Source: Candidatus Hydrogenedentota bacterium (lineage in GTDB: Bacteria; Hydrogenedentota; Hydrogenedentia; Hydrogenedentales; SLHB01). Taken from it: 58,647 nucleotides of DNA. Shown here in pieces: positions 36,001-42,000 of this stretch. The first letter of the stretch is position 1, and every line of letters starts with the position of its first letter. A program made the position numbers. Location of the stretch: NCBI GenBank assembly GCA_029974275.1, contig JARKSN010000189.1, positions 1 through 58,647 on the forward strand, read 5' to 3'.

Positions 36001-39000
36001 GTTTTCGACCACGCCCTCGGAAAGCGGACCGCCCGCGTGCGGACAGACGTCGCTGATGGCGTAAAACGTTCCGTCGACGTTGAATACGGCGATATATTCG
36101 TTTTCCTGCTCGACGCAGATCGATCCGTTGCGTGGAACGTCGTTTTTCGAGGCTATTTTCACGATTCTGGACACGGTTTGCTCCTTGCCTGCCGCCTTGT
36201 CGATTCCATCGTACTCCCTGCGCGGAAAGGCGTCAAGACGACGATCAGGCAGGGCTATCGCAATGCATTGCAACCTGCCCGAGTTTTTCTGTCCCCTTTT
36301 CCACGCCGGTTTTCCCGTTACGTTCATTCCTTGCGCTGAAAAATGCGGGGGGAGAGGCGTTTTGGGCCTTCTGGATATGGTGCGACGGCGTTTTCTCGCC
36401 ACAGCATATGGGGGCCTGTCTGGGGGGCATTTACTGGAGCGACGAATTCTTGTCACAATGACAACTTACTGGCATACAATGAGTTACGTATCCATAAACG
36501 CTTGACGGCCCGGCGCGCGGGTGGTACAATTCCCTTGCACTGAAGACCAAATGGAAGACGGCTCCGGGACGGAAGCGCGCAGAGGTTTGCCATGCTGGGT
36601 TGGAACAAGGACAAAGAGAGTCGCGGCGATCAGAAGCCGGCAAAGCCAGCTTCCTCCCCTCCTGTTGCCGACGTTCGAGCCGTTTCCGCTCCGTCCGCTC
36701 CTTCCCGCCCGACAGAGGCGGCGCCCCTTCCGAATTCCGCAAAGGTCCGGCATCCCGCAAGCCGTTTGGGCGAGATACTGCTGGAAGAGGGGGTCATCAC
36801 CCAGAAACAGCTGACCGATGCCCTTGCCAAGCAGGAAAAGGACAAAGGTTTTTTGGGGCAGGCTTTGGTGGAGTTGGGCATCATCAACCAGCAGACGTTG
36901 GTTTCGTTTTTGGTGAAACAGTGCCGGATTCCTCACATTTGTTTGTTGGATTACGGCTTCAACAATGATCTGATCTCCCTGGTTCCCCGGGAGTTGTGCC
37001 TGAAGTACAAACTCATCCCCATCGATAAGTTGGGCAAAATACTGACAGTGGCGATGGTCGATCCGCTCGATCTGGAGGCCTTGTCGCAGGTGCGGGCGGT
37101 TTGTCCCGAATTGCGGATCAAGCCGATATTGTGCAATTGGGACCATTTCGAGCAGGTTGCGCGCCGGTATTTGATCGATGAACAGGCGAAGCTGGAGGAG
37201 CTGAGCGCCAAGAGTTTTGGGCTGAGCGAACGGCCCCAGGCGAAGAGCGGTTCCGAAAAATCGGCGCCGGCGGCGTTGACGCCGGGCGCTTCGAACGCGT
37301 TGGATGAGGCTGTGATGGCGATTGTGGCCGAGGCGGGCAAGGCGGATACGGCGCGCGTCGTGTCCGATCCGCCCGCAACGTTGTCTGCATCCGCTTCGGG
37401 GAGCGCGTCGCGTTCCGCTGCGCCGGCGTCGGGCGTCAGCCTGGAACAGATCGCCGTGGCGACGCGCGAGGGACTGAACGAAACCTTGCAACAAGCCCTT
37501 CTGCCCTTGGTGGAACAGGTTCGCGCATCCCAGGGGATAGAACCCGGCGTTCTGTCGGCCATGGCCGATCAGATTGGGCATGGGTTGCGCGAGAGCCTGC
37601 GCGATGCCGTGCGGGAGTCTGTGTCAGCGATGATCGAGGCGACATCGCGCAGCGGGCCGTCCCCGGAAATGACGCCGGAAATGTTGGCCGTCACCATCCA
37701 CAACAGCGTGGGCGGGGCCATGCAGGAGGCGATTTCTCAGTTGATCCAGGCCGCGTCGCTCGGCAACGAGCGGTCGGCCTTCGATCCCGAAACCGTTTCG
37801 GATCTGATCCGCGCAAGCGTCTCCAACGGAATGCGCGACAGTATGGAACGGTTGGCGGGAGCCGTCGAAAAATATGCGGAAGCCGCCACGGCAACGGCCA
37901 AGGCCGCGCCCGACATGGATTCGCTGGCCGCGCTGATCCAGACGAGCGTGAGCGGGGCCATGCAGGAAACGGTTGCGCTGCTTGTCCAGACCATGGGCAA
38001 GCAGCCTGGGGGACAGGTCCCGGCTCTTGCTCCGGAGGCGGTGGCGGACCTTGTGCGTCAGAGCATTGCCGGAAGCATGCAGGAGGCGATGGGGCGTCTG
38101 ACGGGAGTGGTCGAGCAGTATGTGGAGGCGGCTGGGGAATCGCGGAAATCTGCGGCGCCCGAGGCGCTTGCCGAGGCCGTGCATGACAGCATACGCGTGG
38201 CGATGGGGGAAGTGATCGCCCAATTGGCGGCGCAAAGCGGCGAGGGAAGCCGCGATCGCATCGTCGAGGATATTCACCGTTTGCTGGCGACGCAGGCGGC
38301 CGAATCCTCGAAGGTGACGGAGGTGGCCCAACGCACGCTGGAGATGGTTCAGGAAGCCATCGACACCGCCAAAGCGTCTCGCGCGGCGACGGAAATGGCC
38401 ACGGAATCCGCGCGGCAGCGGTTCCAGCAGCTTGCCGAAAACGAGTTGCCGAGCAGCGTGGCTCCGTTTCCGTTGGCGGACGCCCGCAAACTCCCGGAAG
38501 AGGGCGCGGCGGCCGTGCCGCTGGATATGGCCGAGGCCATCGACGGCCCCACGGAGAGAAGCCGGCGAGACGAGCGCATCCGTGCGGCTTTGGAGCACGA
38601 TCTCCCCGCGCCGGGATTTTCGTTTGCGGATTTCGTGCCCGGCAAGGCGAATCAATTTGTGTACGGGGTTTGCCGCGGGGTGTCGATCCGGCCTGGGCGG
38701 GAGTTCAATCCGCTGTTTTTGCATGGCGACACCGGGTTGGGCAAGACCCATTTGCTTCACGCGATTGCCGCGCAGATCCAGGAACGCGATCGCGACGCCC
38801 GGATAACGTATTTCTCGGCAAGCCGTTTTGCGCGCCGGGTCGAGCGGGCGGCGGCCGATGGGACGCTTGACGAACTTCGACACCGTCTGTGTATGACGGA
38901 TTTGCTGATGGTCGACGATCTTCAATTCCTGGAAGGCCGTCCCGAGGCCCAAGAGGAATTTTTTCACGTGTTCAACGCGTTGGTCTGCGAGGACCGTCAA

Positions 39001-42000
39001 GTCATTGCCGCGGGCTATGGCCCGCCCGATCGGCTCCCGCAGCTTCCCGCGTGGCTGACGTCGCGGTTGGCGGGCGGAGTTGTGGCGGGGATTGAGCCGC
39101 CGGAGTGGGAAGCCCGGATGATCATCCTGGGTCAGACGGCCGGCGCCTGCCAAACGGCGGTTTCGCATGATGTTCTGGAGCTTGTCGCCCGGCGGGCTCC
39201 CAACGACGTGCGCAGGATGATTGGATCGTTGCGGAAAGTGATCGCTTTCGCTAAGCTGGTCAATCAGGAGATTACGCCGGACCTGGCGGGCGAGGTCTTG
39301 CGGCGACTGGGCATCGAGGAGGCGGCCTAGGGGACAAGCGGGTTCCGCGGGCGGAAGGCCTCTGCGAGCCGAAAACGATGACGAAGGAGAATGCCGTGCC
39401 CCCAAAAACTGGTAAACGCCGTTTGGGTGAAGTGCTCTTGGAGCAGGGATTGGTGAGCGTCACGCAACTCGAGGAGAGCATCGCCCTGCATCGTTCGACG
39501 GGGCAGAGCTTGGCGCATATCCTTGTCGAGAAACAATACGTCAGCGAAGAAGACCTCGTCGTGACGTTCAGCGAGCAGCTCGGCATTCCGCATATCCGCT
39601 TGTCGAATTACAACATCTCGAAGGATGTGATCAAGGAAGTGCCCGAATCGCTGGCGCGGCAGCATTTGATTCTGCCGGTGTCGATGACGGGCGACGTGCT
39701 GACCTTGGCGATGGCCGACCCGCTCAACATCATGGCCCTCGACGATCTGCGCATGCTGACCAGTTACGATATCGAGACGGTGGTGGCGGCGGAGTCCGAG
39801 TTGATGGAAGCCATCGACCGCAATTACGGCGGCAAACAGAGCGCGGAATTGTATGCGTCGCTGGTGGGGGATCAGGGGCAGAAGGCGGACAACCTCGAGA
39901 TTGTCGAGGGACAGGAAGATATTGGCGACATCTCGGCGATGCAGGCCGAGGCCCAGGACGCGCCGGTGGTCCGCCTGGTCAATCTCATTCTGATGAACGC
40001 GCTCGAATCGCGGGCAAGCGACATCCACATCGAGCCGTATGAGAAAATCCTGCGCGTCCGATACCGCATCGACGGCGTGCTCGAAGAAACCAAGAATCCG
40101 CCCAAAAGCGTGCAATCGGCCTTGGTCTCGCGCCTCAAGATCATGAGTTCGCTCGACATTGCCGAACATCGCCTGCCGCAGGACGGGCGCTTCCGCATTC
40201 GCTTCAAGGGGCGCGAAATCGATTTCCGCATCTCGTTCTTGCCGTGTTATTACGGCGAAAAAGTCGTGATGCGCATCCTCGACAAGGGCAGCCTCACGCT
40301 CGATCTCGACAAGCTGGGCTTCGAGGAACAGCCCATGCAGGCCTTTCAGGACGCGTTGAAACTGCCGTTTGGCATGATCTTGTTGACGGGGCCCACGGGA
40401 AGCGGCAAGACGACGACCCTGTACAGCGCGCTGCATAAGCTCAACACGCCCAAGCACAACATCATCACCGTGGAGGACCCGGTCGAATACGAGCTGTTCG
40501 GCGTCAACCAGGTGCAAACCCAGGCGCAAATCGGCCTCACGTTCGCCGCAGGCCTTCGCAGCATTCTGCGACAGGACCCCGACATTGTCATGGTCGGCGA
40601 AATTCGCGACGAAGAAACCGCCGATATCGCGGTCAAGGCGGCGTTGACGGGACACCTCGTGTTGAGCACGCTCCACACGAACGACGCCGCCAGCGTGTTC
40701 ACTCGTTTGACGGACATGGGGCTTGAGCCGTTCCTGGTCCAGTCGTCGGTGGCGTTGGCCGCCGCGCAGCGCTTGATGCGCCGCGTATGTCCCGACTGCA
40801 AGGAAAACATCCGCGTGCCCGAATCCGTTCTGGAGCGCATTCAATACGTGCACGATCCCAAAAATCCGCCGCCCTCCTTCGTGCGGGGCCGCGGCTGCGG
40901 CAAGTGCAAGGACACCGGATACCGGGGGCGGTTGGCGGTCATCGAAGCGATGCCGAACTACCCTGAATTGGAAGAGTTGATCATGGGGCGGGCTCCGTCG
41001 ACGCAGATCAAAAAAGCGGCCATGCAATGCGGCATGCGCACCCTGCGCCAGAACGCGTTGGCCAAAGCCGCCCAAGGGATGACCACCATCGAGGAAGTGC
41101 TTCGCGTAACGGCCACGGACTGATCCGGCGAACGGGGCGCGAGCCATCACGGCATCAAGAGGGCAGGCATGAGCAGCGGCGCGGAAATCAAGATCAGCAT
41201 CAAAGAACTTCTGACCAAAATGATCGAACTCGGGGCCAGCGATCTTCACCTGGTGGTGGGCGCGCCGCCTGTTCTGCGCATCCACGGGGGGCTGGAGTAT
41301 CTGGAGGGATATCCGTCGCTCAAGCCGGACATGTCGCAAGAACTCATTTACAGCGTGATGAGCGACGAGCAGATCGCCGTGTTCGAAAGCGAGCGCGAAT
41401 GCGATCTTTCGTTTGGGGTGGACGGGTTGAGCCGGTTCCGCCTGAACGTGTACCGGGATCGGGGGTCGGTCGCGGCGGCGTTTCGCGCGATTCCCTTCGA
41501 CATCCGATCGTTCGATGAGCTAGGGCTTCCGCGCGTCGTGGCGGATTTCGCCTATCGCCCGTTGGGGCTGGTGCTGGTGTGCGGCCCGACGGGCAGCGGC
41601 AAGTCGACCACGCTCGCCGCCATCATCGATCGCATCAACCGCGAGCGAAACGTTCATATCATCACCATCGAGGATCCGATCGAGTACCTGCACCGCCATC
41701 AGCGGTCCATCATCAACCAACGCGAGATCAACGCGGACACCAACTCTTTTTCCGCCGCGCTCAAGCATGTGCTGCGTCAGGACCCCGATGTGATTCTGAT
41801 CGGCGAAATGCGCGATCCCGAGACCATCGCCGCCGCGTTGACCGTTGCCGAGACCGGCCATTTGGCCTTTGCCACGTTGCATACCAACGACGCGTTGCAG
41901 ACCATCAACCGCATCGTGGACGTCTTTCCGCCAAGTCAGCAAGCGCAGATCCGCACGCAGCTCTCGTTCGTTCTGGAGGGAGTCGTCGTGCAGCAGCTCG

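Follow-up and report, generated by a model that had tools for sequence, protein, structure and literature searches.

An MshEN–DnaA domain III fusion conserved ahead of the pilus motor genes of Hydrogenedentota is a probable regulator of pili, not of DNA replication

Why should an ATPase of the DnaA type, carrying a head of the kind found in MshE and PilB, be encoded immediately ahead of the genes for a type IV pilus motor? The question is raised by an open reading frame in a stretch of 58,647 nucleotides (the window; contig JARKSN010000189.1 of the Candidatus Hydrogenedentota bacterium assembly GCA_029974275.1), whose start (MLGWNKDK) agrees with the MLxW/RxK N-termini of its homologues. The locus is arranged as follows.

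36502–36530, forward strand: predicted sigma-70-like promoter, TTGACG – 17 nt – TACAAT (consensus match, 10 of 12 positions)
36592–39330, forward strand: fusion of MshEN, helical repeats, and DnaA domain III, 912 aa, ATG start
39378–41123, forward strand: pilB, type IVa pilus extension ATPase, 581 aa (TIGR02538, 684.7 bits against a cut-off of 675.65)
41169–42257, forward strand: pilT, retraction ATPase family, 362 aa (TIGR01420, 472.1 bits against 319.1)
42254–43855, forward strand: PilS-like sensor histidine kinase, PAS-HisKA-HATPase_c (Pfam)
43852–45261, forward strand: PilR-like sigma-54-dependent response regulator, REC–Sigma54_activat–HTH_8 (Pfam, NCBIfam)

The pilB gene begins 47 nt 3′ of the fusion gene, and the subsequent spacings up to pilR are 45, −4, and −4 nt, the gene for the PilS-like kinase (with a weak 6TM_PilS match below the cut-off) overlapping pilT by 4 nt. 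The PilR-like gene ends the co-directional block, and the next gene (45351–47243) lies on the minus strand. In the predicted promoter, a TG precedes the −10 hexamer, and the start codon is 62 nt downstream; the 9.2-kb region contains three promoter-like sites, compared with the 1.4 that shuffled sequences would lead one to expect. It is likely that the fusion gene would be transcribed as the first gene of a pilB-pilT-pilS-pilR operon. Among 80 related loci compared, of which 64 encode the full fusion, pilB is located directly 3′ of the fusion gene at all 62 loci with room (median gap, 55 nt), with pilT (52/55), pilS (48/48), and pilR (46/47) further downstream, and no upstream gene of the window recurs. 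The phylum's two deepest and most distant genomes (G001 and G002) have the same order. Both the local operon and its retention throughout the phylum, as described in the earlier note, are therefore upheld by this locus and its relatives. Since the fusion gene is constantly placed 5′ of the pilus motor genes, pili, and not replication, are most likely its target.

The family is widespread: at least two matches to the DnaA model occur in 107 of 135 phylum genomes, and all 20 listed second-tier matches of the fusion type end at model positions 338–365 of 437 in open frames of 542–943 aa. A homologue search scored 177 proteins at E ≤ 1e−3, and the figure of 307 given previously was not reproduced; the 120 listed ones, which form the family set analysed here, all carry PF05157 and PF00308 as had been claimed, and are named ‘DnaA/Hda family protein’ in databases (121 sequences are the base for motif-pattern counts and AF2 modeling). 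The operon can do without the fusion, because two genomes (G037 and G021) have pilB-pilT-pilS-pilR without it and a third (G035) retains the N-terminal module alone. The PilB of this locus lacks the key Gly in motif II of its own MshEN domain, and nonetheless passes the NCBIfam c-di-GMP motif model (51.4 bits). We considered that the fusion compensates for this degenerate pocket of PilB; co-variation lends the idea no support, as the Gly is missing from PilB wherever the fusion is present (65 of 65 loci) and equally in both genomes without it.

The protein itself is divided into the following parts.

36763–36921, forward strand: paired c-di-GMP motif, residues 58–110 (NCBIfam NF053729, 56.2 bits against a cut-off of 38)
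within 36763–36921, forward strand: motif I RLGEILLEEGVITQKQLTDALAKQ, spacer EKDKG, motif II FLGQALVELGIINQQTLVSFLVKQ
36928–37173, forward strand: C-terminal α/β subdomain of MshEN, T2SSE_N type, residues 113–194 (Pfam, AF2, Foldseek 5htl_A)
37441–38247, forward strand: seven copies of a ~30-residue helical repeat, residues 284–552 (AF2, repeat profile)
38242–38442, forward strand: single long predicted helix, residues 551–617 (AF2, pLDDT 55–80)
38590–39309, forward strand: DnaA domain III, AAA+ core and lid, residues 667–906 (Pfam, TIGR00362, AF2, Foldseek)

Pfam assigns MshEN to residues 113–194 (48.3 bits) and Bac_DnaA to residues 676–831 (154.7 bits; E, 3.1e−45), with no match to Bac_DnaA_C or DnaA_N (E ≤ 0.01) and none to the T2SSE motor ATPase (PF00437). 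The DnaA model TIGR00362 covers residues 579–906, corresponding to model positions 48–338 of 437, and because the match ends at position 338, the fusion is without DnaA domain IV; domains I and II are also missing, and domain III is complete. In the AF2 model (121 sequences), pLDDT exceeds 90 for residues ~60–195 and 665–905, and Foldseek matched the model to domain III of Bacillus subtilis DnaA (8bv3_A; TM(target), 0.93; root-mean-squared deviation, 1.7; identity, 35%), to Hda (3bos_B; E, 2.9e−10; also 5x06), and to the MshE N-domain type (5htl_A; TM(target), 0.72). The domain composition, the folds, and the motif strings previously quoted, all of which are present in the translation, were thus closely reproduced.

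The head passes the paired-motif model, confirming a 5-residue spacer between two motifs of 24 residues, as formerly reported; the assumption that motif II starts with Arg did not hold, the residue being Phe87, a Phe in 97% of the family. Owing to this first residue, motif II departs at position 1 from the relaxed pattern given in PMC5013675, and none of 121 members has two matches to that pattern; both copies fit it if a hydrophobic first residue is permitted, and the strict pattern for both motifs is passed by just 29 of 121 members. Elsewhere, R (74%), L (93%), and G (82%) of motif I and G (86%) of motif II are conserved. Binding of c-di-GMP depends most on the Gly and hydrophobic residues of the motifs (PMC5013675), and the Phe accords with the finding in PMC11731258 that a hydrophobic first motif residue in GSPII-B of PilF is compatible with very tight c-di-GMP binding. 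It is probable that the N-terminal module binds c-di-GMP in a four-helix pocket followed by the α/β subdomain, homologous to PilB's own MshEN, with which the head shares 32% identity over 144 aa at the N-terminus of the neighbouring PilB. The α/β subdomain contains most of the family-invariant residues outside the ATPase (Ile113, Pro114, Leu118, Tyr121 … Lys177, Pro178, Ile179, Leu180, and Cys181). In secretion ATPases, this subdomain docks the motor to the platform.

The linker, described earlier as ~450 aa of helical repeats, indeed contains repeats, and can be refined to seven ~30-residue copies (consensus, about PExLAxLIRxSVxGAMQEA...), the long helix, and a low-confidence stretch (residues 617–652). 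A profile built from the seven copies matches 113 of 121 members with 1–9 copies each, and copy number correlates with protein length across the family (r, 0.59). These repeats are particular to the family, and their number varies among its members.

The same variability enters into a different account of the protein's link to pili, in which it acts away from the motor, either in the PilS–PilR branch governing pilin expression or by scaffolding or positioning the pilus machine in an ATP-dependent manner, the repeats serving as a spacer or binding surface. The account can also appeal to pilS and pilR, which are linked to the fusion as tightly as pilB is, to variants that persist at the same position with the N-terminal module and repeats without the AAA+ domain (L102 and L107/G035), and to paralogues in which this N-terminal module carries a cNMP-binding or GGDEF output instead, as expected for a shared targeting module. 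The gene that constantly adjoins the fusion gene, however, is pilB, not pilS or pilR, and three loci (L046, L057, and L063) retain the fusion–pilB pair with no pilT within 2.5 kb downstream. Furthermore, the AAA+ domains of the DnaA and sigma-54 types fall into different clades, which makes mixed rings with PilR unlikely. We regard a role away from the motor as rather unlikely.

We next describe the ATPase module, whose sequence aligns with 8bv3_A without gaps over 233 residues (identity, 35%; E, 8.6e−49), nearer to DnaA than to any other AAA+ family. The Walker A Lys718, Walker B Asp775 and Asp776, Arg finger Arg825, and sensor II Arg874 are each conserved in all 120 aligned members listed. 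Sensor I, the Arg finger, and sensor II correspond to Asp269, Arg285, and Arg334 of E. coli DnaA, in which Glu204, Arg227, and Arg281 have roles as well. Because the module keeps ATP binding together with sensor II and the Arg finger that acts in trans, ATP-dependent head-to-tail oligomers are to be expected, as in DnaA. This copy has Tyr809 at sensor I and Trp821 at the position of Arg281, each found in 2 of 120 members, and its nucleotide handling may therefore be atypical. None of the 120 members retains the Glu204 or Arg227 equivalent, that of Asn332 is replaced throughout the family, the Val211 position is unconserved and mostly small or polar, and the Arg245 equivalent is Glu in 102 of 120. 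According to PMC5716108, Val211 and Arg245 of DnaA contact the unwound origin strand.

The boldest proposal of the earlier note was a c-di-GMP-gated, Hda-like DnaA paralogue that would join DnaA assemblies by way of the AAA+ interface and thereby couple signals from the surface or the pilus to the initiation of replication. With its ATP site and Arg finger intact in every member, the protein could on structural grounds enter a DnaA oligomer; compact relatives (P0217, P0239, and P0268) retain all canonical residues of domain III including those binding ssDNA, so that a DNA-related activity of the ancestral fusion is possible, and in Caulobacter, initiation of the cell cycle is known to be linked to pili and c-di-GMP (PMC7196804). 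Several observations speak against the proposal: the fusion scores below the cut-offs of both the DnaA model (238 bits against 343.9) and the Hda model TIGR03420 (88 bits against 194.8), the strict clamp-binding patterns QL[SD]LF and QLxLxL match none of 121 members, the equivalents of Glu204 and Arg227 are lost from all 120 members and the Val211 position is unconserved, and grouping of its AAA+ domain with the phylum's own DnaA is rejected (AU test, p 4.6e−5). A canonical dnaA (546 bits) is present on another contig of the same genome; neither dnaA, dnaN, nor an origin lies near the fusion gene at the loci examined, where gene order points to pili alone. On two metagenome contigs that carry a compact relative, it is likewise followed by pilB-pilT-pilS-pilR (L220) or by pilB up to the contig end (L218). 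Control of replication by this protein thus appears distinctly improbable.

The ssDNA-binding residues of the compact relatives would also suit a module that binds incoming ssDNA at the pilus base during pilus-dependent DNA uptake, since the ATP-bound oligomer of DnaA domain III binds ssDNA (3r8f is among the fold matches) and natural transformation of Thermus requires PilF, an MshEN-bearing ATPase (PMC11731258). In the Hydrogenedentota family, however, the Val211 position is mostly small or polar and the Arg245 equivalent is mostly Glu, and the operon showed no competence genes, making such a function very improbable.

In comparison with known systems, the fusion resembles DnaA (B. subtilis 8bv3/8btg and E. 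coli) in its initiator-clade AAA+ core and lid and in the invariant Walker A, Walker B, Arg finger, and sensor II residues, and differs from it in its missing domains, substituted residues, and place in a pilus operon. Like Hda, it is related to DnaA in its AAA+ domain and has no DNA-binding domain, but it is far less similar in sequence to Hda (E, 1.6e−8) than to DnaA, does not match the strict clamp-binding patterns, and adds MshEN and the ~450-aa linker. With the MshEN/GSPII receptors of MshE, PilB, and PilF it shares the paired motifs, spacer, four-helix bundle, and α/β subdomain, whereas its output is a DnaA-type AAA+ module instead of the T2SSE motor. Regulators in which a separate c-di-GMP receptor tunes the extension ATPase of type IV pili are an established kind, FimX and PilZ-type adaptors being examples. 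The hypothetical likeness to these is functional, that of a separate c-di-GMP-binding protein acting on PilB, and implies no homology, as they use EAL or PilZ sensors unrelated to MshEN and have no AAA+ output. The word ‘DnaA’ is absent from the main text and two supplements of PMC5013675, whose supplementary architecture table includes fusions to AAA_31, CheX, REC, and Peptidase_M23; no description of the MshEN–DnaA domain III architecture was found in the literature searched.

The other alternative raised in the earlier note, in which the protein regulates the PilB motor as a new AAA+ factor, is in keeping with the gene order, architecture, and phylum-wide spread. On balance, the fusion, which is conserved across the uncultured phylum Hydrogenedentota, is more likely than not an accessory factor, dependent on c-di-GMP and ATP, that regulates the type IVa pilus motor module (PilB/PilT). 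In this proposed mechanism, c-di-GMP would be sensed by the N-terminal module, and ATP would drive self-assembly of the C-terminal DnaA-type module, which has lost all the features that make DnaA an initiator. The resulting oligomer may act at the pilus base, beside PilB or in competition with it, and the level of c-di-GMP would thereby set extension against retraction of the pilus.

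The fusion protein, which joins an N-terminal MshEN module through helical repeats to a C-terminal DnaA domain III, is laid out as follows.

Features of the fusion protein and its gene
36592-39330, + strand: fusion ORF, ATG start, 912 aa
Residues 58-110: paired c-di-GMP motif NF053729 (NCBIfam, 53-residue model; 56.2 bits, cut-off 38)
Residues 58-81: motif I, RLGEILLEEGVITQKQLTDALAKQ
Between motifs I and II: spacer EKDKG, 5 residues
Residues 87-110: motif II, FLGQALVELGIINQQTLVSFLVKQ
Residues 113-194: MshEN (Pfam, 48.3 bits)
Residues 284-552: helical repeats, seven copies, each a helix of ~30 residues
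Residues 551-617: single long helix (AlphaFold2 model)
Residues 676-831: Bac_DnaA (Pfam, 154.7 bits, E 3.1e-45)

An AlphaFold2 model was built from an alignment of 121 sequences of the family (the unnamed MshEN-DnaA-III proteins of Hydrogenedentota; 120 aligned homologues and the window copy), showing pLDDT >90 over about residues 60-195 and 665-905, with helices of moderate confidence in between. The N-terminal module consists of helices (59-111) and strands (141-181) that form a four-helix bundle and then an alpha/beta subdomain, as in MshEN, and in a sequence search of solved structures this part matches the N-domains of PilB, PilF, and MshE (5htl_A, 1.5e-13). In the same search, the C-terminal 233 residues align gap-free with B. 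subtilis DnaA domain III (8bv3_A, E 8.6e-49). The Foldseek comparisons agree with the figures of an earlier note on this DNA, with hits to 8bv3_A (TM(target) 0.93, rmsd 1.7), Hda (3bos_B, 2.9e-10), and MshE (5htl_A, E 5.1e-7, TM(target) 0.72). The repeat profile matches 113 of the 121 family members with 1-9 copies per protein, and linker residues 280-620 gave no usable match in the ESM Atlas. The DnaA model TIGR00362 matches residues 579-906, equivalent to model positions 48-338 of 437, and the C-terminus of the fusion protein corresponds to residue 371 of E. coli DnaA in the alignment to the K-12 protein. Neither DnaA_N (PF11638, domain I) nor Bac_DnaA_C (PF08299, domain IV) is found by Pfam at E<=0.01, which, with the end of the TIGR00362 match at 338, upholds the previous description of a domain III without domains I and IV. 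Unlike DnaA itself, the fusion protein lacks these two domains while keeping the ATP residues of domain III, and it scores 238.3 bits on TIGR00362, below the equivalog cut-off of 343.9. It differs likewise from the PilB/GspE/MshE ATPases, having MshEN without the T2SSE motor domain (PF00437), for which the fusion protein gives no Pfam match, whereas the adjoining PilB scores 474.9 bits.

The reference pattern for the c-di-GMP site comprises two 24-residue stretches, RLGxx(L/V/I)(L/V/I)xxG(L/V/I)(L/V/I)xxxxLxxxLxxQ, 5 residues apart. The two motifs of this length and the 5-residue spacer proposed earlier are indeed present, but not both motifs are intact in the sense of the relaxed pattern of PMC5013675, from which motif II departs at position 1 because Phe leads it; motif II conforms if a hydrophobic first residue is permitted. 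Across the family, motif I conserves R in 74%, L in 93%, and G in 82%, and motif II conserves F in 97% and G in 86%, its hydrophobic positions being hydrophobic in 82-100%. Passages of PMC5013675 state that the two glycines and the hydrophobic residues count most and that a change of Arg9 shifts the affinity less than five-fold. Passages of PMC11731258 report that PilF GSPII-B reaches a KD of 6 nM when its first positions hold Lys or Leu, and propose that a hydrophobic first residue predicts very high affinity, the support there being for Leu. Because both sources soften the objection raised by Phe, binding of c-di-GMP by the fusion protein, as predicted from motif and fold, is likely.

In the ATPase module, a query residue equals the E. 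coli K-12 DnaA residue + 540. K718 (Walker A), D775 and D776 (Walker B), R825 (box VII), and R874 (sensor II), the equivalents of K178, D235, D236, R285, and R334, are each invariant in 120/120 aligned members. Among these members, the equivalent of E204 is Ser or Gly throughout and that of R227 is replaced throughout (Cys in 112/120), with N332, E335, and W288 also exchanged throughout the family, for Asp, Lys, and Ser, respectively. We take E204, R227, D269, R281, and R334 to be functional sites of E. coli DnaA, R334 being sensor II. At the D269 and R281 positions, the window copy and its 98%-identical relative carry Tyr and Trp, where most of the family has Asp (103/120) and Arg (94/120). 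At the V211 position the family varies, with small or polar residues (E751 in the window copy), and Glu takes the place of R245 in 102/120 members (E785 in the window copy); the phylum's canonical DnaA has Ile at 211 in 97% and Ala at 245 in 90%, being also without Arg there. As described in a part of PMC5716108, V211 and R245 contact the unwound origin strand (ssDNA, H/B motifs), and R285 is the Arg finger. The handling of ssDNA during DNA uptake is a very unlikely role for the fusion protein, the least probable of those considered.

The earlier note had left open the check for a clamp-binding motif, which came out negative for the strict patterns QL[SD]LF and QLxLxL (0/121 members), which are of the type of the N-terminal beta-clamp-binding motif of Hda; a loose pattern occurs in 4/121, the window's fusion protein not being among these. 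The fusion protein is thereby set apart from Hda, whose model TIGR03420 it matches with 88 bits, under the cut-off of 194.8.

The gene stands at the head of a pilus gene cluster.

Genes and sites around the fusion gene
Minus strand, upstream: Rieske protein and two radical-SAM proteins
36502-36530, upstream of the fusion gene: sigma-70-like site TTGACG-17-TACAAT
39378-41123, + strand: pilB, first gene after the fusion (TIGR02538 above cut-off)
+ strand, following pilB in this order: pilT, PilS-like kinase, PilR-like sigma-54 activator

The successive gaps from the fusion gene through pilB, pilT, pilS, and pilR are 47, 45, -4, and -4 nt, after which a minus-strand gene comes next. A terminator scan gave 12 candidates, a count not raised over that of shuffles (9.0 +/- 3.5), and none lies within the intergenic gaps. 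A sigma-54 promoter upstream (TGGTAC...TTGCA) was considered and set aside in favor of the sigma-70-like site, its GG-GC spacing being 12 nt, not 10. Elsewhere in the same genome, pilM-N-O-(P)-Q are on contig C106, a pilin-like gene with pilC is on C248, and the canonical dnaA (546 bits, TIGR00362) is on C302. The RNA-library run X18, which may contain DNA, has 151-nt contigs that match exactly within pilB, within pilT, and around pilS/pilR, as well as some depth at 38732-39035; in its contig form, nothing spans the fusion/pilB junction (39330/39378). The stretch occurs in metagenomes of wastewater, activated sludge, and anaerobic digesters, at least half of its sampled words being present in eight runs of six studies, and three DNA runs cover the operon. 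One run, X4 (activated sludge), represents a strain variant that lacks 9 nt in frame at 36685, in a low-complexity N-terminal region near the start of the fusion gene, and otherwise differs by about 2% over the operon. The window otherwise begins with a 2253-aa ORF (16-6777, +) and is rich in glycoside-hydrolase genes (GH2, GH127, arabinofuranosidase-like, DUF4838).

Among the matches listed, all 120 homologues (120/120) carry PF05157 and PF00308, and those with names belong to Candidatus Hydrogenedentes/Hydrogenedentota. The databases call them 'DnaA/Hda family protein', 'ATP-binding protein', or 'chromosomal replication initiator protein DnaA', the first label having been noted before and found again among the listed homologues. 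A search of 135 phylum genomes with the DnaA model gave at least two matches in 107, canonical DnaA alone in 20, zero matches in 4, and, in another 4, a sole match far below canonical (E 1e-72 to 1e-89), the listed one of which, G120, is of the fusion type. All 20 fusion-type second-tier matches among those listed break off close to model position 340, in open frames that are 542-943 aa long.

Gene order was compared in 80 loci from species-representative genomes, 64 of which have a full fusion. In 62 of these 64, pilB follows directly, and the remaining two stop at a contig edge, so that the adjacency is seen in 62/62 loci with room; further downstream, again where the locus has room, come pilT (52/55), pilS (48/48), and pilR (46/47). 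The upstream genes of the window do not recur among these fusion loci. Submitters labelled 46 of the 64 Hydrogenedent*, and the others bear other labels, e.g. 'uncultured Nitrospirales'. Short fusions of 542 and 561 aa occupy this operon in the two most distant phylum genomes. The phylum-wide order claimed previously holds, with exceptions: G037 and G021 have the operon and lack the fusion, both the fusion and an orthologous pilB are missing from G007 and G016, and G035 (L170:8703-10628, -), like loci L102 (9968-10945) and L107, has the N-terminal module and repeats without AAA+, directly upstream of pilB. The fusion protein itself combines MshEN with Bac_DnaA, has no domain IV, and is encoded directly upstream of pilB, as the family is defined. 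With pilS and pilR in the same gene order, we also considered that the fusion protein might act within the PilS-PilR branch or serve as a scaffold; this is unlikely.

The neighboring PilB has a degenerate c-di-GMP motif of its own. Over residues 15-67 (39378-39580), the window PilB fits neither copy of the relaxed pattern, yet scores 51.4 bits on the NCBIfam motif model. The Gly of motif II is missing in 65/65 sequences (the window copy and 64 orthologues, L043-L122), being Ala in 60% and Pro in 29%, and that of motif I is kept in only 55% of the same sequences. The fusion protein may serve as an outsourced c-di-GMP sensor for this PilB, but the two features do not co-vary, the motif-II Gly being missing from PilB likewise in the fusion-less G037 and G021.

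The N-terminal module is also found with other outputs. Hydrogenedentota paralogues share with the fusion protein an MLxWxK start, MshEN, and a conserved SFGL stretch, and end in a cyclic-nucleotide-binding domain (cNMP type; L101, L104, L106, L109, L112, L118, L120, L122, and L087) or in a diguanylate cyclase (PAS-GGDEF type; L111). The cNMP-type paralogues have a motif I without RLG and no conserved neighbors among the nine loci. On contig C3 of the same genome (L011, +), a 476-aa open frame from 1222 has an MshEN-type N-terminus 36% identical to that of the fusion protein, and then an apparent HDOD-type domain. Because the paralogues carry the same N-terminal module with different outputs, this module fits a shared targeting or sensing unit with exchangeable outputs.

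To place the DnaA-III module, the C-terminal 253 residues of the fusion protein were searched against 1.84 billion representative proteins; identity was 40-53% for the family members retrieved and about 38-41% for canonical DnaAs. Several architectures lacking domain IV appeared: compact 454-aa MshEN-DnaA-III proteins (the compact forms, e.g. P0217), the giants P0122 (1876 aa) and P0123 (1990 aa) with MshEN and two DnaA-III copies, a large family of tandem DnaA-III proteins of ~640 aa (P0124, P0131, P0136, and P0256-P0374), and DnaA-III joined to TPR repeats, zinc ribbons, or DUF835 (among P0245, P0226, P0250, P0215, P0222, P0235, and P0247). Those tandem proteins that have names come from Gemmatimonadota, under the label 'DnaA/Hda family protein'; a search with P0217 also returned mostly Gemmatimonadota proteins with tandem DnaA-III. 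Quick maximum-likelihood trees unite the Hydrogenedentota family, the fusion protein included, in one clade (SH-aLRT 96-98), its nearest neighbors being the compact MshEN forms and other odd architectures, and put the canonical DnaAs of the phylum in a clade of their own (99). An AU test rejects the grouping of the family with the phylum's DnaA (p 4.6e-5), the group having been chosen after the first tree was seen. A second non-canonical DnaA-type protein is encoded on contig C193 of the same genome (L003:1483-3495, +, running off the locus), with an N-terminal AAA+ domain (Bac_DnaA 55.6 bits; Walker A GEEGCGKTH) and then >450 aa of coiled coil.

The compact forms retain the equivalents of E204, I211, R227, K243-E-R245, N332, and E335, and one lies directly upstream of pilB on each of two metagenome contigs (L218 and L220), the latter with the order pilB-pilT-pilS-pilR. 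These were the MshEN fusions among the 80 loci of a metagenome scan with DnaA-generic patterns; of five scan loci examined, the other three (L235, L285, and L297) have a DnaA-domain match alone and no pilus genes. As the compact forms sit upstream of pilB and keep the canonical residues, the pilus link seems to predate the divergence of the ATPase surface.

This evidence bears on the suggestion of the earlier note that the fusion protein is a c-di-GMP-gated, Hda-like DnaA paralogue or an AAA+ regulator of the PilB motor. The second half fits the gene order (62/62 pilB), but the first, control of replication, does not fare well with no clamp motif and the R227, E204, and V211 equivalents lost, and a coupling to replication via DnaA is very unlikely. 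In its boldest form, the fusion protein would be a c-di-GMP-gated, DnaA-type oligomeriser physically coupling the type IV pilus machine to the replication initiator: c-di-GMP would rise on surface contact, the AAA+ domain would assemble together with DnaA oligomers or cap them by way of its Arg finger and ATP site, and a joint switch of pilus activity and initiation would result. Such an arrangement is consistent with an ATP site that is intact, an Arg finger that is invariant, and the retention of canonical DnaA residues in the compact relatives, whereas the exchanged initiator residues, the absent clamp motif, and a purely pilus-linked gene order speak against it, and we regard it as slightly less likely still.

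The reading that we consider on balance probable is that the fusion protein is a c-di-GMP- and ATP-dependent accessory regulator of the pilus motor module, because of three lines of evidence. The strongest is the adjacency to pilB, invariant across the phylum and found also in the compact relatives; the second is the PilB-like front end, the N-terminal module being 32% identical to the N-terminal domain of PilB over 144 residues; and the third is the selective conservation of the AAA+ domain, in which the ATP site and trans-acting Arg finger are kept and initiator-specific surfaces are lost. The fusion protein would then have a PilB-like build, with the motor exchanged for a self-assembling DnaA-type switch. 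As to its binding place and its effect on extension or retraction, we can only infer these; a complex prediction of PilM from the pilMNOPQ cluster of the genome (409 aa, 24-row alignment) with residues 55-200 of the N-terminal module scored 0.00 without a verdict, which speaks in neither direction on binding.

No description of an MshEN-DnaA fusion was found in the literature covered, subscription journals being outside its scope, and 'DnaA' is absent from the main text and two supplements of PMC5013675. Database entries already exist; what is new here is an output for the MshEN c-di-GMP receptor and a context for a DnaA-domain-III paralogue. Labels such as 'DnaA' and 'DnaA/Hda family protein' can distort counts of replication genes in metagenome-assembled genomes. 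Because each domain can be expressed on its own, c-di-GMP binding, ATPase activity, and oligomerisation are open to direct tests despite the uncultured hosts. The DnaA ATPase core, usually regarded as serving replication, has here been taken into a pilus operon found across the phylum, where it follows a c-di-GMP receptor domain and keeps an intact ATP site and Arg finger. The other DnaA-III-only architectures (tandem, TPR, zinc ribbon, and DUF835) suggest a wider, unstudied use of the module. If the accessory-regulator reading is true, the family would represent a new effector class through which c-di-GMP acts on type IV pili, and a clear case in which an initiator-clade AAA+ domain is reused as a general ATP-dependent assembly switch.
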